A stretch of 64,000 bases of DNA from an uncultured Candidatus Saccharibacteria bacterium (lineage in GTDB: Bacteria > Patescibacteriota > CAZHWT01), in assembly GCA_964554805.1 (NCBI GenBank), contig CAZKPX010000006.1, positions 11,356-75,355 on the forward strand, given 5' to 3'. The position numbers were made by a program, and so were the translations under genes. Within the stretch, counting starts at the first letter, position 1. Every line of letters begins with the position of its first letter. A model generated the notes under the pieces. That model did not search any database. It was not told the DNA's origin and was given only the letters and a program-made list of their open reading frames with translations. Positions 42,850 through 62,459 of this stretch are shown here, piece by piece.

Positions 42850-42938
42850 ATTCGTTATGGTTGATTCTCACTACGCGCACCATTTTCGTTAATGTATCAT
42901 ACACTCCCAGTAAGGTGTGTTTTTGCTATAATTAGATT

Positions 42939-43956: not shown

Positions 43957-44114
43957 GTCTTTTTGCTCAAACGTAAGTTCGCCATCATCAACAGCATCTT
44001 GTAGTTTATCTTCTTTGCGTACCTTTTAAAACAGTAGGCCTGCAGTCACTAATTGTGTCATATTGGCTCGCTAGACTCCTGTCTGTTCTGCTGTGTTTTT
44101 TGGGATATTCATAG

Positions 44115-45659: not shown

Positions 45660-45754
45660 AGCCTGACTTTTTCGTAATTTTTGGAGACCATCTACTCAGG
45701 AACACAAAAGATAAAACATGGCTTTTGTAAGATCATTTATCCAATAAAGCAAGT

Positions 45755-46260
45755 GTTCGAACTGTGCATCATCCGGCTCACCAAAACACCCCGATTGTCT
45801 TAGCGACGGTCGGGGTGTTTTTGTTAGTCTTGATGATTCTAACCGCGCACAGCGCCAGGTTCGTAGATAGGAAATACTGTTGCTTGAATAAAGCTGAGTA
45901 GTATTCCCTATCGTCACGCAGTTATCCCTCCCGGCTCACCAAGAATCCCTCATCATCTTAGCGATGGTGGGGGATTCTTTGTGATCTGGTCGGTATTTTG
46001 AATACTGCGTAGCATAGGGGGCGAAGCTAGGAAAGCACTATTTGAACAACGATTCAAATAGTGTGAACTAGCGTTACGAATCCGCCAGCTGGCGGAGGAG
46101 TTACCCTCCCCTACCCCGATTGTCTTAGCGATGGTGGGGGAGTTTTTGTTGTGTCGGTTGGATTCTAGCTGCGCGAAGCGCCTAGTTTGTAGATAATAAA
46201 TATTATTCTTAAAAAGCGTAATAATATCCCTTGTCGTCACGGAGTTATCCATCCTTGCAA
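45755..46260 (+). repeat. three consecutive family-C composite repeat copies
   Basis: 45755-45830, 45935-46000 and 46100-46160 each contain '(c)cggctcacca(a)aa...ttagcga(c/t)ggt(c/g)gggg...ttt(t)gtt'. The spacers contain a 'tagata(g/a)(g/t)aaatact...agtatt' palindrome and 'cgtcacg(c/g)agttatcc'. Confidence 0.8.
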
Positions 46261-46281
46261 TAAGAAATTGAATGTTATAAT

Positions 46282-46848
46282 TTGACGATGAAAACAGAAG
46301 AAAAACGATTTCAAAACATTTTAGAATCTTTTCCAAAGCTTGAGCCTATTATGGTAAAACTTGATGAAGCTCATATTCCATACGCAATTAGTGGAAGCGC
46401 TGCGCTTTATGTTCAGGGGCATGACCGAATGCCTAATGATGTGGATTTTATGTTACCAGATGAGGCGTTTTATAAAGCAAATAAGTTGTTTGACATAGAG
46501 CCGCAGTATATAGAGCGACCTTACAACAGTATGAATAAATCCACTCCCGTCGATGATGGTTCAGTAGAATTTCTTAATCGGTATACGGCTAGAGCTGATG
46601 GTCGTTCTTATTATTCCCCTCCATTAAAAACGATTCCTGTTGTATTTAACGGTAGAACGGCAGAGTTTATTCTTGCTGAAGAGATTGCCGCGTACAAGCT
46701 CATCAGTCGCCGCAATCACCATGGCGATATGGAGGATTTTAATAAATTATTTCAACATCCAAACTTTAATATGAGCTCTTTTTGGAAAATTGTGGATTCG
46801 ATTAATGCACGCAAGATAGTTGCTGACTTATTACTGGATAAGCATTAA
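46282..46848 (+). CDS. nucleotidyltransferase-fold protein (minimal Pol-beta-like NTase)
   Basis: 'ISGSAALYVQGHDRMPNDVDFML' fits the hG[GS]-x(9-13)-DhD NTase motif. 188 aa. Confidence 0.55.
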   Translation: MTMKTEEKRFQNILESFPKLEPIMVKLDEAHIPYAISGSAALYVQGHDRMPNDVDFMLPDEAFYKANKLFDIEPQYIERPYNSMNKSTPVDDGSVEFLNRYTARADGRSYYSPPLKTIPVVFNGRTAEFILAEEIAAYKLISRRNHHGDMEDFNKLFQHPNFNMSSFWKIVDSINARKIVADLLLDKH

Positions 46849-46939
46849 TAGCAGATGATGACTTTCTGCTCAAGTGGCTTTTATGCAGCCGTTTAATCTT
46901 CAAGTTCGAAGACTAGCTTGCTTCGCATATCTTCCAACC

Positions 46940-47020
46940 ACTCCAGCAGGTGTTCGAACTGTGAGTCATCGGGCTCACCAAAACACCCTGATTGTCTTAG
47001 CGACGGTCGGGGTGTTTTTG
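46940..47020 (+). repeat. family-C repeat copy with full tRNA-3'-like module
   Basis: ccactccagcaggtgttcgaactgtgagtcatcgggctcaccaaaacaccctgattgtcttagcgacggtcggggtgtttttgtt. Confidence 0.8.
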
Positions 47021-47121
47021 TTATGTTGGTCTGATTCTCTCGTGGGAAGCGGTGAACCATAGATTTTTGGATTCAAAAAAGGCCCGGACAGCGCGGTATG
47101 CGCTGCTCGGGCGAGGTTGAC

Positions 47122-47664
47122 TTAGGGATTATGGGAACACATAGGTTCCGGCATCCCGGTGTAAGGTTCAATAGTGAAGGCCGAGTCTCCCACCATGTTG
47201 GCCATCAAGCCATCAGCGGAGTAACTAACCCACATAAGTCCGTCTCCAGCGATAGACAGGAACGTGGTGACGACGTTGTCGGGCGGCATGCTGTTTACCG
47301 TTTGAGTGGTGCTCTCGACCACGTGAAAAACTTGGCCGTCGTCACTTACACCATAGACGGCAATCGTTTGAGTAGTAATACTAAACGTGCCGGGCTGGTC
47401 TGGCGAACCGGTTTGGGTAGTGACCACATAACCGGTCAGCTGCAGGTGCAAGGGGATGTCCATGCATGGTACATTGTAAGACCGTTCGGCCTCCACCATG
47501 GTCAAGCAAGTGATCTGCGTATTTTGGGCCTTGTCAAAGATTTGGCTACAGTCTACCTCCTGCAACGCTGCCGGAGGTATTGCTGCCGGATCTTCCTTGG
47601 CATTGGCTACTGAGACCGTTGAAGCCAAGGTCATCAAGAAAATAAACAAGAGTCGCCTAAGCAT
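47122..47664 (-). CDS. secreted hypothetical protein
   Basis: Signal peptide 'MLRRLLFIFLMTLASTVSVANA'. 180 aa. Confidence 0.5.
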   Translation of the reverse strand: MLRRLLFIFLMTLASTVSVANAKEDPAAIPPAALQEVDCSQIFDKAQNTQITCLTMVEAERSYNVPCMDIPLHLQLTGYVVTTQTGSPDQPGTFSITTQTIAVYGVSDDGQVFHVVESTTQTVNSMPPDNVVTTFLSIAGDGLMWVSYSADGLMANMVGDSAFTIEPYTGMPEPMCSHNP

Positions 47665-48065
47665 GACTATCTCCTACCGAAGTTCTAGCCGCGTCAGAAA
47701 CAAGCGCATTATATCATACTATGGGATTTATTTAAAGACATAGTAATGAGGGATTGAATTATGTTCATCAATGGTGGCAATGTATGTAAATGCTTAGACT
47801 TTGTTTGACTAAAAATAAAGTATTTATTTAGCAGTCAGGGAACATCCTGCTCACTTTCCACTATTAGCGCTCTACTCTGCCTGAGACCATTGTATCTCTA
47901 ATGGGTGGCAAGCAGTCTATGGAAATTCCCAAACAGCAGCATCTTTTGCAACAATTCTTTAGGTTGTTTGGGATGCTATGCGTAAACGGAGTCAAAAGCT
48001 TTGACTTACTATTAAGCCTCACGAGACTGGTAGAATATATTGCTTAAATAATATAGCCATTCCAC

Positions 48066-48250
48066 TAGGTGTTCGAACTGTGAGTTATGCGGCTCACCAA
48101 AATACCCCGATTGTCTTAGCGACGGTTGGGGTGTTTTGTTGGGCCGGTCAGAAGATCAAATATGTGCGGAGCACTAGGTTTGAAGATAAGAAATATTATT
48201 GCTTTAAAAAGCAAAATAATACTTCTTATCGTCATGAGGTGCAGCCGAAT
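48066..48250 (+). repeat. family-C composite repeat copy
   Basis: ggtgttcgaactgtgagttatgcggctcaccaaaataccccgattgtcttagcgacggttggggtgttttgtt plus a downstream palindrome. Confidence 0.8.
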
Positions 48251-48409
48251 TCCATTCTCCTGGCCCGATTGTCTAGTTGGGAGAATACTATTTAAATAAA
48301 CGACTCAAATAATCAAAGAATTGTTTTAGGTTTGATATCTGATTTTATTGGTCTAATCGATCTAGTATGCTTACTTGTAGCATGGTCCGATGAAGTATAT
48401 AGTTGAGAT

Positions 48410-49816
48410 ATGAGTACTCCTGAACCCTCTCTAGAGCAACAGCCTATTGATCAAGCTGAATTACCCGCTGATATTATTGAGACGCCAGTTGTAATTACTG
48501 CAAAACGAAGTAGGAAATGGCTTATTGTTATAGTCATTATGGTGCTTTGTGTGTTCGGTGCCGCTGCGGCTGTGCTGGTATATAAGCCTTTTAATATAGC
48601 TAGTATTACGCAAAAAAATAGTTCAACACCAATACCCACCCCCACCCCGCCAAACGATAAACTCCTCAAACCTCTAGATATCGCCTCTGTCCAACCTAAG
48701 CTTGTTATAGATACTAGAGACCAAAAAGTCTACACCATTGACCTAAACGGTCAGAACCGTCAACCAGCCAACTTCATTAATTTTGATAATGGCTACGGCA
48801 GCAATATGTATATTGTCGGTGGCAGTCGTCAATGTCTCTATTACTTCAAAGACAATAATGTTCACCGCAGCCTCATTGATGGTACGAGCGATAACCAAGT
48901 CACCTCTTTCCCAGAACAGTTATTTACCGGTCAGACCACCAAGCCAGACAATCTTACCCTAGGCAATGCCACTAAAACACCAACCCGAGTTCTCGGAACA
49001 ACCGGAACAACTGCCGCTCGCATTGGTCTGCTAATGGTTAACCATGATTGTAGCCAAGCAGTCATTAGTTTCAATAACAAAGTAGGGGACACCTCACTAC
49101 CTGCCTCAGCCCTCTATCTGATTGCCCCAGAAAAATTTGACCAACCGCAACTCTTAGATGACCAAGATCGCTATCAGGCCATTGCCTATGACACGTCCAA
49201 CATAGCTCACTTCATAACCAAGGACAATTCAGGATCCAGTTATATAAAATTTGATGGACAGACTTCTCTCTATAAACTAGACGGAACTAAGATAGTCCAA
49301 GAGAATACGCTATCAAACAATACCACTACCGCTACCTTTGGTAAATACATCAAAGAAATGACTGCTTCTAAGCTATTCATCACCATGCAATACAATGACC
49401 TCCAGACTCCTCAAGCCACAACCCAGCCCGCACTCTATGATGCCAAAGCCAATAATATAACCACCATCAGCACCCCTCGGAAGACCAACTCCATTAATAG
49501 TGCCTCCCTGCAGCCAGGAGGAAAGTACGTTGCCTACAGTCTCACTAGTAGCACTACAGATGGCTACAGTTATAATCAACTGTATCTCTATAATGTAGCA
49601 ACAGCCAAACAGGAAAAGGTGAACATAGGCGGCGAACAGCTTCGCCTAAATTACAATGGTCCTCTTTGGGTTAGCGACCAGGAGTTTATTATTCATACCG
49701 GTCAGCCGCGAGGTAATGTCTTTGACGGCGATATTAAGACATGCTCAACCGTGTACCTAAGTTGCCGCACCATCTATAGCAAAGCCGACTTTAACTTCTA
49801 CGGCCACAATCCATAG
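48410..49816 (+). CDS. membrane-anchored secreted hypothetical protein (possible beta-propeller C-domain)
   Basis: N-terminal TM 'WLIVIVIMVLCVFGAAAAVLVY'. Pro/Thr linker. About 400-aa extracytoplasmic domain. Confidence 0.5.
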   Translation: MSTPEPSLEQQPIDQAELPADIIETPVVITAKRSRKWLIVIVIMVLCVFGAAAAVLVYKPFNIASITQKNSSTPIPTPTPPNDKLLKPLDIASVQPKLVIDTRDQKVYTIDLNGQNRQPANFINFDNGYGSNMYIVGGSRQCLYYFKDNNVHRSLIDGTSDNQVTSFPEQLFTGQTTKPDNLTLGNATKTPTRVLGTTGTTAARIGLLMVNHDCSQAVISFNNKVGDTSLPASALYLIAPEKFDQPQLLDDQDRYQAIAYDTSNIAHFITKDNSGSSYIKFDGQTSLYKLDGTKIVQENTLSNNTTTATFGKYIKEMTASKLFITMQYNDLQTPQATTQPALYDAKANNITTISTPRKTNSINSASLQPGGKYVAYSLTSSTTDGYSYNQLYLYNVATAKQEKVNIGGEQLRLNYNGPLWVSDQEFIIHTGQPRGNVFDGDIKTCSTVYLSCRTIYSKADFNFYGHNP

Positions 49817-50189
49817 TTGGTCAGTTTACATTAGGGGTTGTTATGGATCATGCTCTACGTGCTGGGTGAAAGATAGGTGCAGAGTTACGAAGCGAAGCTC
49901 CCCTCCCGACCACTTTTCGTGACTGAACCCTACTCTATATTTCACCCGTTGGTGCTATACTCTGTGTGGTCCGATTTTTGGCTGCATTGCTGTTTATGCC
50001 TACTATAATGCTCTTTTTTGCTGTCGTTCTACTTTCAATGGCACGATCCTTTTGATTAAACTACGAAATCCTAATACCGATGCTTTGATATGTTAGTGCA
50101 AAAGATATGAGCGAGAAGGAAAGAATTAAACTGTCTGAAGAAACAAAACTGTAATTTTCAAGATTGCATTTCATGCACTATATCCTTCA

Positions 50190-50545
50190 GTCACTCCAAG
50201 TGGTGTTCGAACCAAATTTCACTAGGCTCACCAAGAATCCCTCATCATCTTAGCGATGGTGGGGGATTCTTTGTAGGCTGGTCGGTATTTGAATTCTGCA
50301 AAGCATGGGGGCGCAGCTAGGAGAATACTATTGTGCCAACGAGCACAATAGTATGAACTAGCGTTACGAATCCGCCAGCTGGCGGAGGAGTTACCCTCCC
50401 CTACTTTGATTGTCTTAGCGACGGTTGGGGTGTTTTATTGTGTCGGCCGGATTCTCGCAGCGCGGAGCGCTAGGTTCGTAGATAGGAAGAAACTATTGCT
50501 ATAACGATTTTAATAATTGGTACTACCGTCATGGAGCGAAGCGTA
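50190..50545 (+). repeat. two family-C composite repeat copies
   Basis: 50190-50280 and 50395-50450, with an intervening 'gaatccgccagctggcggagg' palindrome shared with family A. Confidence 0.8.
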
Positions 50546-50660
50546 ATTACCCTCTCGGCCTACCGCTATGCATATGCTTGTTTGTTGCTTTTTAAGGATT
50601 AAGCGAGTATATAAAAGATAGCTCAACCTGAGCGTTGCCCAGTCAGAAGGAGAAAGACTA

Positions 50661-50882
50661 ATGGGCATTGGTAATGGCGATGGTCGTGAGACCTTCGATA
50701 GCACCGTTTTCGAGTCGAAGGAGACGGACGATCCTCGAGGCGATCGTACCGATCACTACTTCAACTCGGGCAGTGGCCAAGGAGCAGAGCATGGTCATGT
50801 TGTAGAAATCCGCCACGATGATGGCTCGGTTTCTTACCCATACGTGCGTGATGCTGATGGCAATGTTTACGCCGACGACTGA
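50661..50882 (+). CDS. small acidic hypothetical protein
   Basis: 73 aa. Good RBS (AGGAGAAAG) 8 nt upstream of the ATG. Confidence 0.4.
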   Translation: MGIGNGDGRETFDSTVFESKETDDPRGDRTDHYFNSGSGQGAEHGHVVEIRHDDGSVSYPYVRDADGNVYADD

Positions 50883-50965
50883 ATATCAATCTCGCAAGTC
50901 CTGGGCACGACTTTAAAAACTGCCTACCCTTCCCCGAGGACTGCTTAGAACATTGAGGTGCAAGT

Positions 50966-51265
50966 ATGAAATATGAAGACTATCAAAACGAAGTGAGCGA
51001 AAAAGCCTTTGGCGATGAGCTAGATAAGGATGAATTGTTGTCTTCCCTAAAAACTTATATTTCTAATTACGAACAGTCTGGAGATATTGAGTATCGCAAG
51101 GGAATGGCATATCGGTTTGCTGGGATTATGGCGTCGGATTTGTTCCGAGACTCCTTGTCACAGGATGCCCAGATTGCAGAAGCTCTTGAGTTGTGTGGGC
51201 GCCTAGAGATTGATTCCCAGCCAGAATCTGCTGACTGGGAACAATTGAAATCAGTTGTGAGTTAA
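50966..51265 (+). CDS. small acidic hypothetical protein
   Basis: 99 aa. RBS GAGGTG upstream. Confidence 0.4.
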   Translation: MKYEDYQNEVSEKAFGDELDKDELLSSLKTYISNYEQSGDIEYRKGMAYRFAGIMASDLFRDSLSQDAQIAEALELCGRLEIDSQPESADWEQLKSVVS

Positions 51266-51454
51266 CTGTGCTGAATTTTTCTGTCACATAGCTCGGTCAT
51301 TACTCTGACCGAGCTATTTTGCTTTCAAAGTCACATAATAGATGTAAGTTGCTCCGACTCACTAAATGCCCCGATTTTCTCAGCAATAATGAGGATTCGT
51401 TGTGAGCCGGCTCGGACTATCCACGGATAGTACCGACTAAATCGGGGTTAATGC

Positions 51455-51570
51455 TCTCCCCTCCCCTTGACCGTTTCATCTCAGATAGTATGATTAGCAG
51501 TCTATGGAAAATGAGCACCATTGACCTGGCAAGCAGAGGTGTTCTGAGATGCACGCCCGGAAGGGGTGAA
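51455..51570 (+). ncRNA. family-D structured repeat element, candidate small RNA with its own -35/-10 (copy 1 of about 5)
   Basis: TTGACC-16-TATGAT precedes 'tagcagtctatggaaaatgagcaccattgacctggcaagcagaggtgttctgagatgcacgcccggaaggggtg' (GGAA-capped hairpin). Related copies at 54455-54580, 56600-56720, 62210-62330 and a degenerate copy at 57180-57300. Coding potential is poor. Confidence 0.4.
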
Positions 51571-51656
51571 AAGGGGATACTACGAGGGGAGGTGAGAGGC
51601 ATTGCAAATGATGTGGACCCGGTGGCTGAAACAGCCACCGGGTCCATGATCCCTCC

Positions 51657-52745
51657 TTATACATCCCGTTGAATTCCGAAGTCCAATATCCCCAACAGTA
51701 CGTTTCTCATAGCGCTCTCTGGGAATACGTCGATCAACATGGACTTTGCCTCTGCCACAAGCCTTTGCGCTGTAACTTGAGCGTAGCGCAGTGACCCGCT
51801 TTTCTCCAGGATGGTGATTGCTTCAGCGTGGTGCATCGGATCTTTGGTTTTTAAGGCCAGGATCTCTAATAGACGTTGGCTGCCAGGCGAACTAGCCCCT
51901 ACAGCATGAATGACTGGCAGGGTCTTTTTGCCCTCGGCTATATCCGCGCCGTAATCATCCGCGCCAGAGCGTAGGCAAAGCATGTCATCGTGCAACTGAA
52001 AGGCGGTAGCACTCAGGTGGCCTGCCTGGACTAGTACCTCTAACTCCCTAGAGTCTATTCCGCCAGCCAGCGCACCCACCACAATGGCAAACTCAAATGC
52101 AGCACACTTAAGCTTACACATACGCAAGTACTCTTCGGTTGAAGGGATGTAGCTCTCTTGAGACCACGCTAAGTCCAGTGTTTGACCGAGGCGGGCCTCT
52201 GCGGAGAGGCGCTTGTAGTGGGCAAGAAGCTCGATGGCTAGTATGCCATCAACTCCATCCGTCTCTAGGATGAACCGAGGGGACTGATAGAGTAACTGAG
52301 CAGCCTCACTCGCCACCGCTATGCCATGCTCAAGATGAGCTGGCAGTTTGCCATCGCGCTGCTCAGCCTGATCATCCATGTCATCCTCAATCAGGGATCC
52401 TCGGTGAGGTAGCTCTGCCAAAAGAGACAGTTGGTCGATCAGAGGAAACTGTCCGGCGGCTAGATCGTGGACTAGATAGACTAGGACTGCTCAAACCCTT
52501 TTGCCTCCACCTGCAATCGCTGATACACGGATTGCTTCAAGAACCTGATCATCTACCGAAATTCGGTAATGCCCATCACGCAAACTTTCCCAAAAGGTCT
52601 GGAGATTTCTCTGAGACCTTTGGTACTTCTCTATGTAATAGGGCGTCCAATCAAAGGCAATGTGACCTACTTTTGCTATTGCTTGAGACTGGCGTGCAAC
52701 GACGACTGTGCTCATCTGTCCGTCTCCCTGCGATTGTCGATTCAT
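51657..52745 (-). pseudogene. polyprenyl (isoprenyl) diphosphate synthase, disrupted by a frameshift
   Basis: The C-terminal fragment (51657-52421) carries both Asp-rich motifs ('LIEDDMDD', 'FQLHDDMLCL'). The N-terminal fragment (52491-52745) ends with the conserved 'AGGGKRV' in a different frame. Confidence 0.6.
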
Positions 52746-53022
52746 CTCCTGGGTGCATTATGCCATATAGGTCAACCTTGCTGCGAGATTTTGTAGTCTG
52801 CGAAAACATATAAGTTGTCATATGGACAAATTACGTACAATCCAACTTGCGTCGTAAGTCCTCTAGTTACTCCAAAAGCAGTATGGGAATTTAAGTATCT
52901 ATTCATAATGAATATTTATACGGTATTAACGGCAAACTGTATAAATGGTATACAATTGACTATACTTAGTGTATAATATATCATATTATTTATACAGTAC
53001 TTAATCAAAGGACTAATATTCA

Positions 53023-54132
53023 ATGAGTATAGATAGAGACCAACCATACAACGAATTACCATTATTGCCTCCAAAAGATATACCCTACAATGATTCTAAA
53101 ATCTTGGAAGCTTCATTATTGGCATCTGATGCGATAGGGGCGCTACGAGCTGGTATGAGATCTGATCAACATAATGTAATAAGGGCAGTGAGCATGATGA
53201 GTCCTCTTTTTGTCCCAGAAGCAGTAACAAGCTCAGGAATAGAAAATATTGCAACAACAAATGAGTTGGTATTGCAAGCACGCTCAGAGCAGCGTAACGA
53301 TGTAAATCCAAATGAAAAAGAGGTTCTAAATTACGTAGACGCCTTAATTCATGGTATGGAAAAGATACATGAAAGAAAAATCCTTACAACAAATGATATT
53401 ATTGATATTCAATCAATTCTTGAACCTACCAAGAGAGGTTTAAGAAAGGTGCCAGGGACATCGCTTCAGAATCCTGTTACAAAAGAGGTTTACTACACTC
53501 CACCTACTGGTGAAAGATTAATAAGGGATTTATTACAAAACCTTGAAGTTTATTTTAATGAAGAGGCACCGATTCAGGAGATATATGCAAGAATGGCAAT
53601 TTTGCATTATCAATTTGAGGCCATTCATCCGTTTAATGATGGAAATGGAAGAACTGGACGAATGTTAATGCCATTGTACTTGATGCAGCAAGGCCGCTTA
53701 AGTCTTCCGGTTCTATTCATAAGTAAGTATATATTAGAAAATAGAGATGAGTATTATCAAAAGCTGAGGGCGGTAACGTATGAAAATGCATGGGCGGAGT
53801 GGATTCTATATATCATCACAGCCACAACAACTCAAGCGAAGTACACTTCTGATATTCTAGATCGGATAAGACATACGATTGAAGTTACAAGCAAAAGATT
53901 AAAGCAAGAGCTACCAAGCATATATAGTGCTGAACTAGTAAACTTTATTTTTGCAGAACCATATTTTGATGTTGCAAGATTTCAGCATAGCCTTGGCATA
54001 AGTTATGCTACAGCTAGAAAATATCTCGCACTTTTGGAGGAGTCTAAGTTATTGGTGAAGAAAAAGCAGGAGGGTAGAAATCGTAATTTGTACGCAAATC
54101 CGCAATACATACAAATCTTAAAACAAACATAG
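53023..54132 (+). CDS. Fic/Doc-family protein (class II, with inhibitory SxxxEN motif and C-terminal winged-helix)
   Basis: Fic motif 'HPFNDGNGRTGR'. N-terminal 'TSSGIENI' inhibitory-helix motif. C-terminal HTH-like segment. Confidence 0.85.
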   Translation: MSIDRDQPYNELPLLPPKDIPYNDSKILEASLLASDAIGALRAGMRSDQHNVIRAVSMMSPLFVPEAVTSSGIENIATTNELVLQARSEQRNDVNPNEKEVLNYVDALIHGMEKIHERKILTTNDIIDIQSILEPTKRGLRKVPGTSLQNPVTKEVYYTPPTGERLIRDLLQNLEVYFNEEAPIQEIYARMAILHYQFEAIHPFNDGNGRTGRMLMPLYLMQQGRLSLPVLFISKYILENRDEYYQKLRAVTYENAWAEWILYIITATTTQAKYTSDILDRIRHTIEVTSKRLKQELPSIYSAELVNFIFAEPYFDVARFQHSLGISYATARKYLALLEESKLLVKKKQEGRNRNLYANPQYIQILKQT

Positions 54133-54279
54133 TTTTGCGAATAAATAATTATGGTTCATATACAAGCTGGTAGTTAAGATATTGTAGATAAAGCACTCCC
54201 CTCCTCCATCACCTTAAGCAACTTATTCCAGTCATTCAGGCTCTGGAGTCATTGATTCCATTGCGCCGAAAGTCGGCTC

Positions 54280-54345
54280 ACCAAGAATCCCTCATCATCT
54301 TAGCGATGGTGGGGGATTCTTTGTAGGCTGGTCGGTATTTGAATT
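54280..54345 (+). repeat. family-C repeat copy
   Basis: cggctcaccaagaatccctcatcatcttagcgatggtgggggattctttgt, nearly identical to the 50228 copy. Confidence 0.8.
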
Positions 54346-54664
54346 CTGCAAAGCATGGGGGCGTAGCTAGGAGAATACTATTGTGCCAACGAGTACAATA
54401 GTATGAACTAGCGTTACGAAGCGAAGTTAAGTTACCCTCCCGGCTCACTTCTCATCTCAGCGCTCTCCCCTACATTAAGTCCATTTATCTCTGATAGCAG
54501 AGTTGACAGTCTATGGAAAATTAGCCACAGCGATCTGGCAAACAGAGTCGTTCTGAGATGCACGCCCGGAAGGGGGTGTTAGCGGGGTGTTAATCTGTAT
54601 CCTGCTTGTTGGTTGTTTTGCGTCAGCTTGACTAAGATTGCCGAAGTATGGCACACTGTAGGCA

Positions 54665-55276
54665 ATGAAACGCTTGCCTGTTCTATTTTTGAGTAGGTTC
54701 GGGTTGGTGGGATTGGTTGGGCTGTTGGTAGCAGTCCCCCCTGCTCTGGCGGCCTCTATCTCTTTACAAGGTCAGGCAGTATTCTCCAATACCGGAGGCT
54801 CTCTTCACTTTAGTGATTTCAATAGCAATGTGACTTTGGATACCGACACCGGTCATCTATCCGGCTATTCCTGGTCAGATGATAGCGGCTGGGTAGCGTT
54901 TGGTACGCAAGATAATGAGCAGGGTCCAGTTATAGTTAACCTAACCACGGGAGCCATTACCGGTTCGGCTAAAGTATTGGCTACCGACACCTATATTACC
55001 TTCACCGGCAACAGTAGCAACCTAAGCCTTGACACCCAAACAGGTCAGTTTACTGGCTACTTGTTTGACCCGGATATGGGTTGGGTTGAGTTTGGATCTT
55101 CCCCGCAAACAAGTGTAGTATTGGCGGCCGCTCTGCCGCTCGCCCCTACTCCAGCGCCTACTTCTGCCCTGCCCTTGCCTGAGACCGGAGCAGCTTTGGG
55201 GTTGGCGGCGGTAGTGGGCTGGATGCTTTTGGGAGGCGGTCTGATGAGCCGTGTATTACGGAAGAGGAATCTTTAG
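54665..55276 (+). CDS. LPXTG cell-wall-anchored surface protein (sortase substrate)
   Basis: Signal peptide. C-terminal 'LPETG' followed by hydrophobic 'AALGLAAVVGWMLLGGGLM' and 'RKRNL'. Confidence 0.7.
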   Translation: MKRLPVLFLSRFGLVGLVGLLVAVPPALAASISLQGQAVFSNTGGSLHFSDFNSNVTLDTDTGHLSGYSWSDDSGWVAFGTQDNEQGPVIVNLTTGAITGSAKVLATDTYITFTGNSSNLSLDTQTGQFTGYLFDPDMGWVEFGSSPQTSVVLAAALPLAPTPAPTSALPLPETGAALGLAAVVGWMLLGGGLMSRVLRKRNL

Positions 55277-55277
55277 T

Positions 55278-56234
55278 ATGACTATTTCCCTTGAATTGAA
55301 TAAAAAGTCTGGAGTGATAGTTGGGGTGAGCGTGATAGGGCTGATTGCTTTGGGCATGGCGGTGCAGACATTTGTGTCTCCTATTTTGACAGCTCAGGCA
55401 GATCAAGTAGGCGGCTCTCCCGATTCCGGCGTCGCCTCCCGCCTCACCCAAGCCTACAATTCAGTGGTTGACCAAGGCCACGGCGCTAGTGCAGTTCCGG
55501 AATGGACGCATGACTGGAGTACACAGTGGAACAGAATTATGCGTGCTGCCAGCTGGACGCCAGGCGGAAGTGCTGATCCCAATCAGGTACTTGCTGGTAA
55601 AACGTTTACGGCTGGCAGTCGCGGTTTGCAAACTGGCACCTATGACCCGATTGATACCATGTACGGTGGACTATCGTTACAAAACACTCATAATGACACC
55701 ATAGGCAACGCCACCTGGACAGAAACTAGCTCTGGTGGCACGCCAGCCAGTGTAATCCTGCGGACGGTGACTATTGCCCTGTCATCAAACAGTGTCATGC
55801 AAGACCAGCGCACCGGGTTGTATTGGACAGACCGCAGTGATACGGCTGTATCAAACAACAGCTTTGCCAATACTGCCGGGCAGACTGACCGGGTTAATCC
55901 GGATACTAATCACTGCAACTTTAACAGCCCAGGAGATGCTAATGAGTGGTGTAATACCGCCGACACTGGTGTATCGGCCAATGAGCTTTGCCTGAACTTA
56001 GAGCTTGATGATGGGACAGGCCTTAAAACTGACTGGAGGCTGCCTACCCAAAAAGAGTTGATGATTGCTTTTGTTAATGGGGCAGCTGCTAATCTAGCTA
56101 GCACCGGTGTCCACTACTGGTCTTCTACCCAGGGTTCGGCGACGGTTGCCTGGGGCGTGCTCTTGTTTAATGGCACCGCGGGCTACGGTACTAAAACGGA
56201 GGCCACGGTCCTTGCTCGGTGTGTCCGGGGATAA
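55278..56234 (+). CDS. DUF1566 (Lcl C-terminal-like) domain protein, N-terminal TM anchor
   Basis: 'WRLPTQKELMIAF...YWSSTQGSATVAWGVLLFNG...ARCVRG' matches the DUF1566 consensus pattern. Confidence 0.6.
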   Translation: MTISLELNKKSGVIVGVSVIGLIALGMAVQTFVSPILTAQADQVGGSPDSGVASRLTQAYNSVVDQGHGASAVPEWTHDWSTQWNRIMRAASWTPGGSADPNQVLAGKTFTAGSRGLQTGTYDPIDTMYGGLSLQNTHNDTIGNATWTETSSGGTPASVILRTVTIALSSNSVMQDQRTGLYWTDRSDTAVSNNSFANTAGQTDRVNPDTNHCNFNSPGDANEWCNTADTGVSANELCLNLELDDGTGLKTDWRLPTQKELMIAFVNGAAANLASTGVHYWSSTQGSATVAWGVLLFNGTAGYGTKTEATVLARCVRG

Positions 56235-56649
56235 AGGATGATAATCCGACCCAGTAGGGGCGGATTTCTCTCTCACCCCTTCCGGGTGTGCATCCCGGAA
56301 CGCCTTCGGGCAAGCGTGTGTTTTTGGTGGGCCGGGAGGGGAATTCCACTTTGTTCCATAAAGCTAGTTCATACGATTGAGCTCTTTGGCTCAATCGTAT
56401 TCTCCCAGCTTCCAAACCTGGCGCTTCGCGCGGATTCGATGGCGACCAGACGCAACAAAAAGTCTCCAGCACAAAAGTCCTGAGGGTTCTTTATTGTGTT
56501 TGGTTGGATTCTCACCTCCACTAGCTGGCAGAGAAGTTACCCTCCCTTGCTCCGGTCAGGACAACGATACCCTCTCCCGGCTCTTACTTTCCATGCTGGC
56601 GCTCCCCTATACTTTTGACCGGTTCATCTTAGATAAGATTGTTAGCAGT

Positions 56650-57090
56650 CTATGGAAAATGAGCACCATTAACCTGGCAAGCAGAGGTGTTCTGAGATGC
56701 ACGCCCGGAAGGGGTGAAAATTGTTTCAACTATATCAACTGGTATGTATTCAGATTCTAAAATCGATCGACAAATTTCTGATGTCTGCTGTACTCTAACC
56801 TTATTGCTGCGAATAAGCACCACCCCACCAGAGTATTGATCGCGATTGGCTAGATAAAAATCCCGTACATCTAATCCTAATTGGGCTGCTTGCTCTTCTC
56901 CTTCGCGGGTTAGGGGTTGGTTTCTATCATTCTCTAGGTGAGGCTCATTTTCTGCGTGCCTGATGGCAATAATATGCTGCAGGGTGGGAGCAGGCCCTTT
57001 ATTATTGTAGAGTCTTTGATAGCTTGGTTGGTGCGCTTCTTCATTTTGGATTAGGTTATTTTCATGCGGACCAGGGTATTCATTGGACAT
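56650..57090 (-). CDS. histidine phosphatase (SixA/PGAM-like); C-terminus encoded by a family-D repeat
   Basis: 'IIAIRHAENE' RHG-type motif. The last about 27 codons run into repeat D3, suggesting insertional truncation. Confidence 0.5.
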   Translation of the reverse strand: MSNEYPGPHENNLIQNEEAHQPSYQRLYNNKGPAPTLQHIIAIRHAENEPHLENDRNQPLTREGEEQAAQLGLDVRDFYLANRDQYSGGVVLIRSNKVRVQQTSEICRSILESEYIPVDIVETIFTPSGRASQNTSACQVNGAHFP

Positions 57091-57554
57091 TATGTATGTA
57101 ACTCCTTAACGCATCCCATAGGCTTATTATCGCTTATTCTGGCAGATAGATGCAATCCGCCTTCTGTGCGAGCACCTTTCCCTATTTTAGTCCGGTTATC
57201 TCCAATAATAAGATTAGTGGTCTATGGAAATTCGAGACCTTAAATGGGCAAGCTAGGTAGTTTGAGTCGCTCACTTGTAAGGGGTGAAATAACTAAGAGA
57301 TATCAGGATCTTGTGTGGGAATTGATTGACGCTTGTCGGACTTGAGATGTTTTATGGATGCTTGATGGTATGTAAGCATTTTAATGACTCTTATGCTTTG
57401 GGTGGTGCTGTTTATTGCACAACAAGCCGAAAGCGAGTATGGGGAAAATAGAAGTAGAAAAGGTTAAATGCATAATAAAAAAACTGGGTAGGTCAGATTT
57501 TGATTAGGTTTTTATCTAGAGAACTTTTTGATTTAGGATTGAACATCTTTCACT

Positions 57555-57640
57555 TAGTCATTCCAGCTGGTGTTCGAACTGTGAGTTATTCAGCTCACCA
57601 TAAAAACCTCAAGTCTTCCGACTTGGGGTTTTTATGTTAT
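57555..57640 (+). repeat. family-C repeat copy (divergent)
   Basis: cattccagctggtgttcgaactgtgagttattcagctcaccataaaaacctcaagtcttccgacttggggtttttatgtt. Confidence 0.75.
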
Positions 57641-57893
57641 TCGGAGGGTAGAACTGCCAGGTTCGGGGCCATAGGAAGTCATTATTGCAAATCGATTGCA
57701 ATAAGAAATGCACCAGGCGATAGTACGAAGTGTCAACTCTCTACTCAATAAATATGTATTAAAATATATATTTGTTACATTTAACCCTGATAAATTTTAT
57801 ATACATAGGTAGTTGTGGTTAAGCGTCAGAGGCAACCATTTGGTAAGTGTGAAAGGTGTCTTGAGACATATTTATTTCTGAATAACTTGACTC

Positions 57894-60320
57894 ATGCTTG
57901 CCCGTAAGCCTAAAATAATGCTGATGCTTATTCGGAAGTCGCTTCTTAAAAAGCTAACTTTAATTGCACTATCTACTATTGTTTTGGCTAGCATAGCTCC
58001 TTTATCTACCACCCAGGCTGATTCGGATCCATCATTTCAATGGTCGGAGTCTTCCATGCCGCCCATCGGTCGATTGGCAGCGCAATGGAGAGGGCTCTCG
58101 GTTAGCAGTGATGGGCAGGTGATTATCGCTGGTGCGGCTTATGGCAGAGTCTATGTCTCTCGTGATCGAGGTGATACCTGGAATGAGGTTCGGCCTGCTG
58201 GAGACACAACCAAAGAATGGCAAGGTATTGCTACTAGCGGTGATGGGCAGACGATGATGGTAGGCGTAGCTCACGGCAGTGGTTTGGGTAGACTTTATCT
58301 TTCTAAGGATGCAGGCGCTAGTTGGATAGACCAGCCGTTGGCGGGAGATATAGACAGAAAGTGGCGGACAGCTTCTATAAGTTATGATGGGCAAACTATT
58401 TTTGCCGCTGATAGTGGCGGTAGGGCTTATTTATCTAGGAACGGCGGCGATGACTGGGTTGAGGTTCAGCCCAATGGAGATGCGAATAGAAGCTGGTACT
58501 CTTCGGGAATGAGTCGAGATGGGCAAATCATTGTAGCTGGGGTAGCTAGCGGCCGAGCATTTTATTCGAACGATAATGGAGTTTCGTGGATTGAGGTGCA
58601 GCCTCACGGAAATTCTAATCAAACATGGTATGCCGCCTCAGTGAGCGGCAATGGCCAATCGGTTTTGTTCGGTGGCAATACTGCGAGGTTGCACATTTCA
58701 ACGGATGATGCTCAAACGTGGGCACCAATCCCCTTTGATGTGGATACGGGTATGGCCTCCCTAGCTGTAGATATCGCTGATAACGGCACGATTCTAGCTG
58801 GTAGAGATGGGGGCATACCTTATATTTCTTATAACTTTGGACAATCATGGGCAATTGCTCCCGACCTTCCGTCGAGCTCTTGGCGAGCAGTTGGCATAAG
58901 CGATGACGGGCAAACGCTTGTAACTGGTGGTACAGCAGGATACCTTTATATATCCAAAGATGCTGGCATTAGCTGGCAATCGACTGGTCCTTTGGTACAT
59001 GATTCTGGCTTTATCTCAACTGCTGTTAATCATGATGGCCATGTCAAGATTGCTGGAACAGGTGGGCGCCTTTATCGCTCACTAAACAGAAGCAATAATT
59101 GGGCAGAGGTTAGGCCAGCTGGTGACAGCAATCAAACATGGTATACCGCCTCTATTATGACTGATGGTCAAACCATATTAGCTGGAAGTAACACGCGACT
59201 GTATCGCTCAATCGACGGCGGGGATAGTTGGTCTGAGATGCAACCAGCGGGTGATGTTAATAGAGTCTGGTTCACAACTTCTTTAAGTAGTGATGGAGAG
59301 ACTATATTAGCTGGTGTCAATAGTGCCAGTAATGGTCGCCTGTATCGTTCTGTTGATGGTGGAGTCACTTGGGGCGAAGTTAGGCCAGGAGGAGATACTA
59401 ACTATACCTGGCGGACCACTGCCATGAGTAGTGATGGACAGGTCATGCTGGCTTCAGTGACTGGTGGCCACCTTTACCGCTCTGTTGATAGTGGAGACAC
59501 TTGGTCTGAAATACAGCCAGAAAGCGATGCTGCTCAAACATGGAGGACCACCTCTATAAGTAGTGATGGGCAAGTAATGCTGGCTGGTCACACTGCTCGT
59601 TTATACAGATCTGTCAATGGTGGTAATGCATGGAGTGAGGTTCAACCTGCAGGTGATGCGGATGGTAATTGGCGAACATCTATGTCCTCCAGTGGTCAGA
59701 TTATGGTGGCAGCCTCTTATGGTGGTCGGATATACCGTTCAGTTGATGGAGGCGACACATGGAGTCAGGTGCAACCAGGCGGAGATATCAATTCTAACTG
59801 GCATCCTATTTCGGTGAGTGGTGATGGCCATACAGTCTTGGCTGGGGTAGATGGTGGTGGATTGTATCTAGGCGTCACAAGCCCTGCATCTCCTGTACTA
59901 ATGATTGTATCTGGCGCTCAATTTATTGCTGATTCAATGATTGCGCTGACTGGCACTGCTCCTGCTAATGCTACTGTTGAAGTTGAAGTCCATTCGACTC
60001 CTCAGTCTGGCACGGTTGTAGCCAATGGTAGCGGCCAATGGTCATGGATTCCTCCGCTAAAACTTGAACCAGGCTCTCATTCCTATAGGGCTAGGGTGAT
60101 TGATGGTGATGTTATTGGCGCTTGGAGTGTGTGGACGGAATTTCAAGTTTTAGCTGCTATAACCAACAATCCCTCTAATTCATCCAGTCAACAAATACCT
60201 AATACGGGATCTGATTCTTTGGTAATTCGCTATAGTGGCCTTGTATTACTGGGACTTGGTGTAGCTAGGTTTTATGTGATTTTAAGGCGCAAGCGGCTAG
60301 ATGCGCCTGAATTATATTAA
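57894..60320 (+). CDS. BNR/Asp-box beta-propeller surface protein with IPNTG sortase sorting signal
   Basis: At least 14 repeats of 'G(R)LY(R)SxDxGxTW(S)E(V)QP' (Sx[DN]xGxTW). Signal peptide. C-terminal 'IPNTG' + hydrophobic + 'RRKRL'. Confidence 0.75.
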   Translation: MLARKPKIMLMLIRKSLLKKLTLIALSTIVLASIAPLSTTQADSDPSFQWSESSMPPIGRLAAQWRGLSVSSDGQVIIAGAAYGRVYVSRDRGDTWNEVRPAGDTTKEWQGIATSGDGQTMMVGVAHGSGLGRLYLSKDAGASWIDQPLAGDIDRKWRTASISYDGQTIFAADSGGRAYLSRNGGDDWVEVQPNGDANRSWYSSGMSRDGQIIVAGVASGRAFYSNDNGVSWIEVQPHGNSNQTWYAASVSGNGQSVLFGGNTARLHISTDDAQTWAPIPFDVDTGMASLAVDIADNGTILAGRDGGIPYISYNFGQSWAIAPDLPSSSWRAVGISDDGQTLVTGGTAGYLYISKDAGISWQSTGPLVHDSGFISTAVNHDGHVKIAGTGGRLYRSLNRSNNWAEVRPAGDSNQTWYTASIMTDGQTILAGSNTRLYRSIDGGDSWSEMQPAGDVNRVWFTTSLSSDGETILAGVNSASNGRLYRSVDGGVTWGEVRPGGDTNYTWRTTAMSSDGQVMLASVTGGHLYRSVDSGDTWSEIQPESDAAQTWRTTSISSDGQVMLAGHTARLYRSVNGGNAWSEVQPAGDADGNWRTSMSSSGQIMVAASYGGRIYRSVDGGDTWSQVQPGGDINSNWHPISVSGDGHTVLAGVDGGGLYLGVTSPASPVLMIVSGAQFIADSMIALTGTAPANATVEVEVHSTPQSGTVVANGSGQWSWIPPLKLEPGSHSYRARVIDGDVIGAWSVWTEFQVLAAITNNPSNSSSQQIPNTGSDSLVIRYSGLVLLGLGVARFYVILRRKRLDAPELY

Positions 60321-60574
60321 AGGTTAAGCCTACCTGCTGACTATGGAGTATCAGACTTACCACTAAGCATTGAAGATACCGCACAAAGCGCAGTCAATAG
60401 AGCAAAGGAGGTACCCTAGTGACCAGCTGCTCTGGTCTGATGCGTTAAGCCGAGCAACGCAAAGCCATCACTGAATCTGGATCTATGGCTTGATCGGCTT
60501 TAAATATCTTTGAGGGACGATTTTCCAGACTATACTAAGTGTGAGGCTGTAGTTTTTTGTCGTAAATCTTCCAG

Positions 60575-60660
60575 CCACTCCAAAAGGTGTTCAAACTGTG
60601 AGTCATCCGGCTCACCAAAAGGGACATCGCGAAAGTGATGTCTTTTTTGTTGTTATAATA
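60575..60660 (+). repeat. family-C repeat copy
   Basis: ccagccactccaaaaggtgttcaaactgtgagtcatccggctcaccaaaagggacatcgcgaaagtgatgtcttttttgtt. Confidence 0.8.
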
Positions 60661-60762
60661 ATGAAAACTATGTCTGACCGAGTTCGATAATTTGACACTA
60701 AGAGGGATAATATCGAACTCTGCCAGCTATTCTACAGCTCATCTGTAATTTTTTGTAATAAA

Positions 60763-60816
60763 TACTGTACATTATGAGTACAGTATTATTGACATTTCTT
60801 TATAAATATGTAAAAT
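60763..60816 (+). promoter_or_regulatory. operator-like inverted repeat (TACTGTAC-N7-GTACAGTA) abutting a TTGACA-16-TAAAAT promoter
   Basis: IR at 60763-60785. -35 at 60789-60794. -10 at 60811-60816. The ATG lies at 60823, so the mRNA would be (near-)leaderless. Confidence 0.55.
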
Positions 60817-60822
60817 GAACTT

Positions 60823-61521
60823 ATGGCTAATATTACCTATGTAATAGAAAAATTAATAAAGCTTCGAGAGCAAAACAGCTATACTCAAGAAGAGATTGCG
60901 CAAACTCTCGGATTGAGCAGGCAGAGTTATATCCTCGTCGAAAAAGGTCAGCGAGATCTAAATACTCAAGAACTAGAGCTTCTTGCCGCCAAATACGGTA
61001 TTGATATCGCTGATCTCTTTGATGAAATTCCTAACCTAGAAAAGTTTAAGCAAATGTATTTTGTATGCTTGGAGTTCGCTGCTAATAGTCATGGGAATGT
61101 TACCAAAACTATGCTAGCGAAGCTCCTCTATCTTGCAGACTTTGCAAATTTTTATGAAGCACTGGAGCCTATGAGTGGGGTTAAATATCGTCGCATGGAA
61201 TATGGGCCAGTAGCAGATATTTTTTTCTCAATGACCGACGACTTGCTTGAATCGGGTAAGATTAAAGTGCAAGTGCTCGACCGAGGGGCACAAATGATAT
61301 CTCTTAACACCAGAGAGGCGAAGACTAATCTGCTTTCCAACGAAGAACTTGATCGCATAAAGACTATTTGTGAAGCATGGAAAGACAAGCCAACTCAAGA
61401 TATCATTAACTTCACTCACGAACAACTGCCCTGGAAAATGTGTCGTAATGGTGAGTATATTCCATACTCTCTTATCATACAGGAAGATCCAGAGCATGTT
61501 TACCAACCGCTTACCAGATAA
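60823..61521 (+). CDS. HTH-XRE + Panacea (DUF4065/SocA-like) domain protein; PanA-type antitoxin candidate
   Basis: N-terminal 'YTQEEIAQTLGLSRQSYILVEKGQRDLNTQELELLAAKYGIDIADLF' Cro/C1 HTH. C-terminal 'LAKLLYLADFANFY...EYGPVADIFF...EQLPW' Panacea pattern. Confidence 0.75.
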   Translation: MANITYVIEKLIKLREQNSYTQEEIAQTLGLSRQSYILVEKGQRDLNTQELELLAAKYGIDIADLFDEIPNLEKFKQMYFVCLEFAANSHGNVTKTMLAKLLYLADFANFYEALEPMSGVKYRRMEYGPVADIFFSMTDDLLESGKIKVQVLDRGAQMISLNTREAKTNLLSNEELDRIKTICEAWKDKPTQDIINFTHEQLPWKMCRNGEYIPYSLIIQEDPEHVYQPLTR

Positions 61522-61921
61522 TATCGATTACAGAGTAGTGTTTAGTGATTTTGCTCAAAGATACTTCATTAAACAATTTTCTAAGAATTATCCTGGTAAG
61601 CAGTGGACAATAACGCAAGATTCTATCTTTGAGCAGCTGAAGCGTGTTCATGCGATACAGAGCACTCAGCAGGTGGATGAACTAAAGAATTGTGCTGATT
61701 GCCTGCTCTTTAAATACGATTTTGCTGTTGCCAAGACTAATGTATCGGCAAAAGCCTCTGGGAACCGCTGTGTAATCTTCTTGGATAAGTTGACTCAACA
61801 ACAAACAATTCTGGTCCTGTATCATAAGTCGCATTTACCCAAGAATAAACACGAGAATCAGTATATTGATGCTGTCCTTAAGGACGAATTCCCTCAATTT
61901 TATGCTCGACTTCATGTTTAA
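61496..61921 (+). CDS. small toxin candidate (RelE/ParE-like features, unclassified) overlapping the Panacea gene end
   Basis: ATG at 61496 overlaps the upstream stop by 26 nt. 141 aa, basic. 'YRVVFSDFAQRYF...RCVIFLDKLTQQQTILVLYHKSH' is vaguely RelE/ParE-like. The six-frame ORF (61370-) would start earlier, but the internal Met fits the operon geometry. Confidence 0.45.
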   Translation: MFTNRLPDNIDYRVVFSDFAQRYFIKQFSKNYPGKQWTITQDSIFEQLKRVHAIQSTQQVDELKNCADCLLFKYDFAVAKTNVSAKASGNRCVIFLDKLTQQQTILVLYHKSHLPKNKHENQYIDAVLKDEFPQFYARLHV

Positions 61922-61994
61922 TGAGTGGGTATTGGTGGTGGATCAAGATCATCTTTGTTGATCTGTAGGCTCTCATATAAAATCTAGTCTCTGT

Positions 61995-62100
61995 CTTAAA
62001 CTCTCTAGCCACTCCAATAAAAGTTCGATATGAGCATCACTCAGGTCACCAAAACTCCCTCATCATCTTAGCAATAGTGGAGGAGGTTTTGATGTGTTGG
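61995..62100 (+). repeat. family-C repeat copy (degenerate) fused to family-D element at 62210-62330
   Basis: ccactccaataaaagttcgatatgagcatcactcaggtcaccaaaactccctcatcatcttagcaatagtggaggaggttttgatgtgttgg. Confidence 0.7.
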
Positions 62101-62459
62101 TCAGTATTTGAATCCTGTGAAGCAAGGGGGCGTAGCTAGGAAAGCCCTATTTAAACAACGATTCAAATAGTATTCCTTATCGCCACGAATCCGCCAGCTG
62201 ACGGAGAAGGCACCCTCCCCTCTCCTTGACCATTTCATCTTAGATAAGATTGTTAGCAGTCTATGGAAAATGAGCACCATTGATCTGGCAAGCAGAGGTG
62301 TTCTGAGATGCACACCCGGAAGGGGTGAGAAGATACAAGTGCGGGATAAACTTGGGTAGGAATGGTGGGTGGAGTGGTTGAGAGCGTGAGTGGAGGGCTT
62401 GGACAGGAGTGCTCTGGATGTGTAAACTGTATACTAACAGACAAGCACGCGCGCTTCTT

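Follow-up and report, generated by a model that had tools for sequence, protein, structure and literature searches.

In Prochlorococcus, successive tycheposon integrations leave partial tRNA copies inside islands, and newer elements flanked by partial tRNAs displace the older ones (bioRxiv 10.1101/2020.12.28.424599). An arrangement that recalls these islands was found in a 64,000-nucleotide (nt) stretch of DNA from an uncultured Candidatus Saccharibacteria bacterium (hereafter the window, to which all coordinates refer), where a short repeat, the family D element (D, with five main copies named c1 to c5), recurs within the 20 kb or so downstream of a tRNA-Lys(CTT) gene. An earlier note on this DNA had taken D for a promoter-bearing small RNA or a miniature inverted-repeat transposable element (MITE). 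Genomes of Saccharibacteria and of other members of the candidate phyla radiation (CPR) are about 1 Mb in size and hold few known mobile elements, and the gain and loss of their accessory genes, such as those for surface proteins, toxin-antitoxin pairs and Fic proteins, are poorly understood. Judging from its sequence and context, D would most likely be the cassette-side right arm of a site-specific recombination junction, with the core GGCTCAC, in a tRNA-seeded cassette island, a reading to which we give about an even chance. If it is true, a 20-kb array with about 14 tRNA-like junctions, reassorting arms and no resident integrase would represent a compact gene-capture locus; in the literature searched, no such arrays were found described for Saccharibacteria or Patescibacteria.

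The island resembles the Prochlorococcus tycheposon arrays in the intact tRNA at its edge, the direct partial 3' copies of this tRNA between the cargo, the presumed distal displacement of older insertions by newer ones, the presence of degenerate remnants and the streamlined genome of the host. It differs from them in that no integrase or hallmark mobility gene was detected in 21 kb, the units are of 0.16-4 kb and carry 0-3 genes, as many as about 14 junctions share 20 kb, their common identity is about 7-16 nt, and the arms belong to a few reusable types that include D. With integron arrays it shares small, mostly co-oriented and recombinase-less cassettes, a structured site, some 100 nt long, that recurs between them and a cassette-type cargo (toxin-antitoxin, Fic and unknowns), whereas IntI, attI and Pc are all missing from the window, no inverted R''/R' pair (RYYYAAC/GTTRRRY) is found, the GGCTCAC core is repeated directly and imitates the 3' end of a tRNA, and the right arms are mostly terminators. 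With neither R'/R'' cores at the junctions nor IntI in the window, an identity of D as an integron attC was rejected.

The pdif (XerC/XerD) modules of Acinetobacter plasmids use 28-bp sites with an 11-6-11 layout in alternating orientation and carry 1-3 genes, often toxin-antitoxin pairs, their recombinase being encoded elsewhere. Compared with these modules, the sites of the island are direct, tRNA-like and chromosomal, while the small-module plan is alike. MITEs, Correia-type and enterobacterial repetitive intergenic consensus (ERIC)-type repeats and bacterial interspersed mosaic elements (BIMEs) have in common with D that they are short, non-coding, multi-copy and intergenic with hairpin potential, and one D copy makes a promoter. 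BIMEs, as mosaics of repetitive extragenic palindromic (REP) elements, also assemble few motifs in varying combinations, as D does with two other modules of the island, A and B. Unlike these repeats, D lacks target-site duplications and convincing inverted repeats at its termini, keeps to one orientation and lies clustered by a tRNA-like core, and no RAYT or transposase was found.

Recurrent junctions in the tRNA-Lys island

The intact tRNA-Lys(CTT) gene, detected by ARAGORN and Rfam at 42737-42811 on the + strand, has GGCTCAC (42803-42809) as its 3' acceptor strand and is followed by a terminator hairpin, t0, that extends to about 42856. From this heptamer the island runs on the + strand to 62334 (42803-62334), with cassettes of 0.16-4 kb and, degenerate ones counted, about 14 GGCTCAC-based junctions. 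Between 42.7 and 62.4 kb the exact heptamer occurs 10 times on the + strand for 1.2 expected (P ~6e-7), and once in the other 44 kb of the window. Copies of the tRNA-Lys 3' end lie at 43539, 45775, 45933, 46972, 48091, 50225, 54275, 54442 and 60609, and degenerate ones at 47848, 56579, 62043 and, on the minus strand, 56333. The cargo consists of genes for a glyoxalase-like protein, unknowns, a Kelch-like protein, a polyprenyl synthase, a Fic protein, LPxTG and Lcl_C proteins, a His_Phos fragment, a BNR/sortilin protein and an HTH-SocA toxin-antitoxin pair. Of the features tested for a tRNA-seeded island, an intact edge tRNA with direct internal copies of its 3' end, an accessory cargo and an atypical composition were found, but an integrase was not found in the part of the island covered by the window. 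Concerning the composition, the GC skew is about 0 at 48-56 kb, 0.06 at 44-48 kb and 0.09-0.24 over nearly all of the remaining window; the low skew at 48-56 kb is consistent with foreign DNA. Over the window as a whole the skew is strongly positive, although many large genes lie on the minus strand.

A junction vocabulary was established from the 50 nt on each side of every core. On the left, the core is preceded by the real tRNA, by a pseudo-T-arm module named T (..CCACTCCAnnnnGGTGTTCGAACTGTGAGTCATCC) or by module B, and on the right it is followed by CAAAA and one of four terminator hairpins (t0-t3) or by D in its long form, TTTCCATGnTnGCGCTCTCCCC.... Written as left arm/right arm, the junctions read tRNA/t0 at 42803; B/t3 at 43539; T/t1 at 45775, 46972 and 48091; B/t2 at 45933; T/t2 at 50225 and 62043; T/t3 at 60609; and B/D at 54442 and 56579. 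The left arm is unassigned at 47848 (with D on the right) and 54275 (with t2), the minus-strand junction at 56333 reads B/x together with the 3' end of D, and at 62211 B is fused to D with the core deleted.

Module A, in which the 3' end of tRNA-Lys is duplicated (core at 54275) and joined to terminator hairpin t2, is found at 54235-54335 (+), with further copies at 45732-45827, 45926-45993, 46927-47033, 48042-48151, 50176-50285, 57554-57632, 60561-60620 and 61993-62104. Module B, a left arm of about 125 nt, is found at 54329-54445 (+) and is made of a hairpin (AATACTATTGTGC..GCACAATAGTAT) and a T-arm-like hairpin that ends with ...GTTACCCTCCC at the core; this end, ...CCCTCCC/GGCTCAC, is once more the tRNA-Lys 3' end. 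Other copies of B lie at 45987-46114, 50279-50403, 62098-62223 and, on the minus strand, 56331-56412, and partial ones at 43461-43527, 45859-45921, 50474-50559 and 56518-56548. Weak similarities to B at 13486-13697, in the intergenic region upstream of clpP (E 0.015-0.27), are probably due to chance or to very old fragments.

Comparison of the arms revealed that they are reassorted at the core. By ungapped identity, the right arms of junctions 45933, 50225 and 54275 are 100% identical and their left arms 20-27%, the right and left arms of 43539 and 60609 agree at 82% and 25% respectively, and 46972 and 60609 share left arms at 87% and right arms at 32%. The point where homology switches is the GGCTCAC heptamer itself. 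That one and the same 7-nt sequence serves again and again as the switch point, with arms combined in many ways, is a signature of site-specific recombination, unlike homology-driven duplication.

Units of about 160 nt that are 'empty', with a terminator hairpin followed by B between two cores, were also observed at 45775-45933, 54275-54442 and 62043-62211. The complete site may have a double core, of the form T/core/t-B/core/D.

Copies of D and the favoured explanation

That a repeat family exists at the places proposed in the earlier note was confirmed by block search, repeat search and nhmmer, with all five copies on the + strand. The 69-nt block quoted there is present at 51500-51568 with 0 mismatches, at 56648-56716 with 1 and at 62259-62327 with 2, for 0 expected from shuffles, and the repeat search delivers a 118-nt family at 51456, 54465 (74%), 56604 (88%) and 62215 (92%), together with a degenerate copy near 57198-57289 and a reverse-complement fragment at 56271-56305. 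The limits of the copies were set by an nhmmer profile hidden Markov model built on c1-c5. Copy c1 (51452-51575) lies between convergent genes and carries the sole good sigma-70-like site; c2 (54461-54584 by the profile) has a long form that begins at 54442 with the core (54442-54448), has 73% identity to c1 and represents a B/core/D junction; c3 (56600-56723 by the profile) has a long form that begins at 56579 with the degenerate core GGCTCTT; c4 (57172-57295) is degenerate, with about 64% identity to c1 and two 1-nt deletions; and in c5 (62211-62334) module B is fused straight to D, the core having been deleted at a CTCCCC microhomology. D reaches about 20 nt further 5' than the unit first described (...GGCTCAC/TTTCCATGnTnGCGCTCT...).

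Beyond c1-c5, the profile gives weaker + strand matches at 47868-47996 and 2906-2990 and a 3' fragment on the minus strand at 56265-56325, and two or three older copies can be recognised. The first, at 47848-47996 (+), follows the core-like heptamer TGCTCAC and is recognisably conserved only in its 5' half. The second is a 5'-half copy outside the island, at 2886-2990 (+), with a 9-nt inverted repeat (ACTTTCCAT...ATGGAAAGT) and two direct copies of TTAGCACTCTA, and the third is a degenerate 5'-half-like fragment on the + strand at approximately 2095-2170 (TCATCTCAGATA ... ATGGAAAGT). The inverted 3'-end fragment at 56265-56325 (GTTCCGGGATGCACACCCGGAAGGGGTGAGAG) is preceded by an inverted B and by a core that reads GGCCCAC (56333-56327). 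In pairwise comparison, identity is 88-89% among c1, c3 and c5, 71-73% between c2 and these three, 63-65% between c4 and the same three, and 53-59% between them and the two old copies.

The position of D with respect to the junctions is recurrent. In c2, c3, c4, c5 and the 47848 copy, what comes directly before D is the core, or a remnant of it with B in front, and four of the five main copies sit right after module B and a tRNA-like core or what is left of it. Every full copy is on the + strand, six of them within 15 kb, in the same orientation as the tRNA-Lys gene and 12 of the 15 island genes. The order A-B-D, with D as the last of the three modules, recurs at 54235-54584 and 61993-62334, and an A-B stretch of 146 nt is 99% identical between 50225 and 54275. 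Two motifs within D are invariant: the 10-mer TCTATGGAAA, even among copies with an overall identity of 50-58%, and ATCT, which lies about 24 nt upstream of the 10-mer. The 5' half, of about 75 nt, is bounded by the inverted repeat ACTTTCCAT...ATGGAAAGT (7-9 nt) and contains TTAGCRCTCTA twice and an ATCTnAGAT palindrome. Most simply, the 10-mer and the ATCT motif are predicted to be protein-binding sites, either of a recombinase arm or of an accessory factor.

According to the favoured explanation, the 20 kb or so downstream of tRNA-Lys would have been built by repeated insertion of small cassettes at GGCTCAC and would then have decayed. Each junction would be composed of a left arm, GGCTCAC and a right arm, the sites of the cassettes would mimic the tRNA 3' end, and newer cassettes would push the older ones away from tRNA-Lys. 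D, as the first cassette sequence past the crossover, would be copied passively with each D-bearing cassette or junction inserted or duplicated, and would be reshuffled by recombination and small deletions. Its later decay would comprise the deletions at CTCCCC microhomologies that are seen at c5 and 50390, an inversion (56265-56412) and the truncation of c1. We infer that a trans-acting site-specific recombinase carries out the reassortment and that D acts as its arm; with the recombinase missing from the window, the enzyme must act in trans or have been lost if the junctions are recombination sites. D would be part of the junction grammar of the cassette island, and its context explains more than the small-RNA reading does. 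As a repeat module D is new and, as far as the accessible data go, private to its lineage, and the island appears to work like a tRNA-seeded one.

Several observations weigh against this explanation. Copy c1 has no recognisable core upstream, and the two 5'-half copies located 40 kb from the island have no clear tRNA-like core. No integrase, resolvase or other recombinase, transposase or reverse transcriptase was found in the 108 stop-to-stop frames of at least 55 amino acids (aa) between 42.8 and 64 kb, among the 25 Pfam families listed of the 26 matched, and scans of single open reading frames (ORFs) against Pfam, NCBIfam and PHROGs, covering the main island ORFs and other parts of the window, returned none of these enzymes either. 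D was found in no second genome among the collections searched. Moreover, the 3' halves of c1, c3 and c5 are 94-98% identical and their 5' halves 77-82%, and the old copies retain only the 5' half; by these comparisons D is a mosaic whose two halves have separate histories.

Alternative explanations for D

A serious rival, which we regard as possible rather than probable, is that D would be mobile but non-autonomous, as an element that is either MITE-like or derived, in palindrome-associated form, from the IS200/IS605 type and that would insert in one orientation just 3' of a short target such as T(C/T)AC, which happens to end the tRNA-like core. D is short, non-coding and multi-copy, and its left end comes right after TTAC in c3, TCAC in c2 and the 47848 copy and GTAC in the 2886 copy; however, the sequences flanking D do not rejoin to an uninterrupted B/core/terminator site, and no target-site duplications were seen when the flanks of seven copies were inspected. 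The restriction of the full copies to one strand would suit insertion in one orientation, and the inverted repeat of the 5' half, with the doubled TTAGCRCTCTA and the ATCTnAGAT palindrome inside it, fits a mobile element, but the left and right ends lack similar subterminal hairpins and their complementarity is short (CTCCCCT/AGGGGTG at the ends of the unit in the earlier note). A mobile D would also fit the copies outside the island, which bracket a MazG-like gene 40 kb away, the truncated genes that some copies adjoin (c3 and c4 bracket the His_Phos fragment) and the breaks of short-read assemblies of the same organism inside D. Against this stand the absence of TnpA, TnpB and DDE transposases from the window, the absence of D from the other genome collections searched and the common left neighbour of four of the five main copies. 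With this common neighbour, the missing target-site duplications and the single strand of the full copies, D fails several tests as a classical MITE.

The favoured explanation can also be extended to an integron-like platform of CPR, in which cassettes of 0-3 genes without integrase would share a composite site that joins T or B, GGCTCAC and a terminator or D, so mimicking the tRNA-Lys 3' end, and would be inserted, excised and shuffled by a recombinase encoded elsewhere, D being the alternative cassette-side arm with a putative binding site (TCTATGGAAA / ATCTnAGAT) for this recombinase or an accessory factor and occasionally an outward promoter (c1). Such an extension is doubtful at present; the interest of the locus would be considerably higher if the cassettes are actively shuffled.

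It is improbable, on the other hand, that D is inactive and merely belongs to an intergenic segment of which unequal or microhomology-mediated recombination made duplicates in a decaying island, some copies being kept alike by gene conversion. The clustering of the D copies within 11 kb, the colinear A-B-D blocks with the nearly identical A-B stretch and the visible microhomology deletions are all in its favour, and the higher identity of the 3' halves of c1, c3 and c5 is what conversion tracts would give. Nevertheless, at 10 junctions or more, whose arms are combined in many ways, homology switches at one 7-nt core, which homology-driven events would hardly produce, and the 10-mer TCTATGGAAA has stayed invariant in copies whose overall identity is so low.

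The reading of D as a small RNA gene, or as a promoter with its leader, transcribed from its own promoter, is very unlikely. The TTGACC-16-TATGAT site does exist in c1 (51467-51494) and is positioned for transcription to start at the conserved block, but it is absent as such from all other copies. Copies c2-c5 have either lost their -10 element or have it out of place (TAAGAT at 13-nt spacing, or GCAGAG), the best -10-like hexamer of c3, c4 and c5 being TAAGAT at this spacing and c2 having none, and promoter-like sites are in no excess across the region (26 vs 29 ± 4.4 in shuffles). The + strand carries all D copies and also the genes that come after c2 and c5, but ORF 54665, downstream of c2, has a promoter-like site of its own, and c1, c3 and the 2886 copy lie between convergent genes, where a promoter would have nothing to drive.

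The hairpin at the 3' end, said to be capped by GGAA, was verified in c1, c2, c3, c5 and the inverted fragment (CACGCCC-GGAA-GGGGTG), while c4 reads CUCACUU-GUAA-GGGGUGA. Both loops are of the GNRA type, and the stem changes of c4 are compatible with G-U pairing on the + strand only, which favours an RNA. The folds are weak, however: single copies have z-scores of +0.1 to -1.7, and the RNAalifold consensus of seven copies reaches -2.46 kcal/mol with an unfavourable covariation term of +0.39. In a three-helix model (CATCTCA/TGAGATG, GAGCACC/GGTGTTC and the GGAA hairpin) that is paired in 76.6% of cells, covariation across the copies is 0.181 against 0.184 for shuffled controls, 250 of 500 shuffles being at least as high, although power is low with seven copies, three of them almost the same in sequence. 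The substitutions that had looked compensatory (ttgacc/tgatc/taacc) are one-sided changes with invariant partners, at a covariation score equal to that of the shuffled control. No hairpin with a U-tract terminates D on either strand, c3 being flagged solely through its flank. The search in Rfam suggested by the earlier note gave no match: over the window D is unmatched in Rfam 15 at gathering thresholds, and at E<=10 nothing relevant appeared over 50-63, 42.6-50.2 and 1.9-3.1 kb. D is non-coding DNA, and its being an RNA gene is not supported by any positive sign; in annotation it should not be labelled as a small RNA gene. Hence, from the promoter-bearing small RNA or MITE first proposed, the repeat, the hairpin, the promoter of c1, the truncated neighbours and the link with genome plasticity are retained, and the small-RNA headline is not.

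The remaining identities were rejected. A hammerhead or other small ribozyme (CUGAGAUG...GAAA) has a core that misfits CUGANGA and nothing in Rfam at E<=10 to match it. Concerning a protein-coding D, a single frame on each of the + and - strands stays open across c1, c2, c3 and c5, yet the third codon position is not favoured by the differences between copies, those between c1 and c2 falling on every codon position, the ORFs continue past D into flanks that are unrelated, and a search of both frames against 5.8 billion proteins recovered only the 76-aa ORF of the source contig itself. The template or variable repeat of a diversity-generating retroelement was dismissed as well, no reverse transcriptase having been found in the window, the Lcl_C 3' end and the FGE-sulfatase ORF being unrepeated in the window and the differences among D copies not being adenine-specific. 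The two copies preceding + strand genes, c2 and c5, do lead into secreted proteins with C-type-lectin-like domains (LPxTG-like and Lcl_C/DUF1566 after c2, FGE-sulfatase after c5), domains that are typical of the targets of such retroelements.

Occurrence in other genomes and neighbouring genes

A 24-nt core of D had 0 matches in 185,579 GTDB species-representative genomes and 0 in JGI metagenomes, and a 19-nt core had 0 in IMG/VR. Searches by blastn with D and with the A-B-D composite found no match among plasmids and phages, and the pattern of B joined to the core gave one chance match in a metagenome (unrelated high-GC DNA, locus L052) and none in viral contigs. At 44 tRNA-Lys loci that the anticodon arm retrieved from genomes of other CPR or of unrelated organisms, no A, B or D was present and extra copies of the tRNA 3' end numbered at most 2. 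As far as the accessible data go, the A, B and D modules appear private to the lineage, as would be expected of selfish or recombination DNA that evolves fast and not of a functional RNA under conservation. At a few loci (L034, L036 and L044, from other CPR or unclassified metagenome-assembled genomes) the tRNA-Lys 3' end is found once or twice more within 1 kb downstream of the gene; in these lineages, integration at tRNA-Lys may have recurred.

The same organism, with the same gene order, is represented by short Logan contigs (SRR16798009, SRR16797978 and SRR16798008) that stop inside D and inside a neighbouring repeat, so assemblers also treat both as repeats; D, A and B break short-read assemblies of this organism. 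Identical proteins are on record only from the 88-kb NCBI contig and these short contigs. MnmA (31110-32186) has its nearest named homologues in metagenome-assembled genomes of Candidatus Saccharimonadales/Saccharibacteria, with non-identical relatives at 86%, 81% and 71%. The guess that D is a cyanobacterial repeat, made from the repeat-rich look of the DNA, was ruled out by these homologues.

The gene pair at 60823-61921, an HTH-SocA (Panacea) antitoxin with a 141-aa partner, is common in Saccharibacteria at 65-75% identity and occurs there in at least three unrelated neighbourhoods (loci L055, L057 and L059), which suggests that it is a mobile two-gene module and speaks for the cassette island. 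In L057 it stands directly beside a tRNA-Trp gene. None of the contexts of this pair in other Saccharibacteria contains A, B or D modules.

As for the genes around the copies, the proximity of one D copy to the polyprenyl synthase gene was confirmed, the ORF (51657-52421, minus strand) ending 82 nt from c1. Between c1 and the stop codon of this ORF, a perfect 14-bp hairpin (GGACCCGGTGGCTG aaa CAGCCACCGGGTCC, 51611-51647) looks like a bidirectional terminator. Copy c1 alone has an outer inverted repeat, AATGCTCTCCCCTCCCC (51452-51468) with GGGGAGGTGAGAGGCATT (51586-51603), that widens its hairpin potential past the shared unit. The Fic gene (53023-54132) lies ahead of c2, which is followed by the genes for an LPxTG-like surface protein (54665-55276) and an Lcl_C/DUF1566 protein (55251-56234). 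The proposal that a D copy supplies the C-terminus of a histidine phosphatase was borne out for c3, into which the last 24 or so codons of a truncated His_Phos_1 fragment (ORF 56650-57090, minus strand) are read. Further on comes the BNR/sortilin protein (57894-60320), and the 129-141-nt periodic repeats at 58000-59900 are the BNR/Asp-box (SxDxGxTW-like) protein repeats of this ORF and not DNA elements. Downstream of c5, the ORF with the FGE-sulfatase domain starts at 62382 and runs off the window.

At the other end of the window, the MazG-like gene (2421-2798, minus strand) stands between the D fragments at 2095-2170 and 2886-2990. The long intergenic region beside it holds, at 2163-2290, where Rfam had nothing relevant to offer at E<=10, two tandem copies of about 45 nt, ACCATGCTGTGTCATCCTGAT(G/C)(A/C)GTCAGC, which are preceded by a perfect hairpin (ACAGCATGGT..ACCATGCTGT), and one of the two contains CTGATGAGTC.

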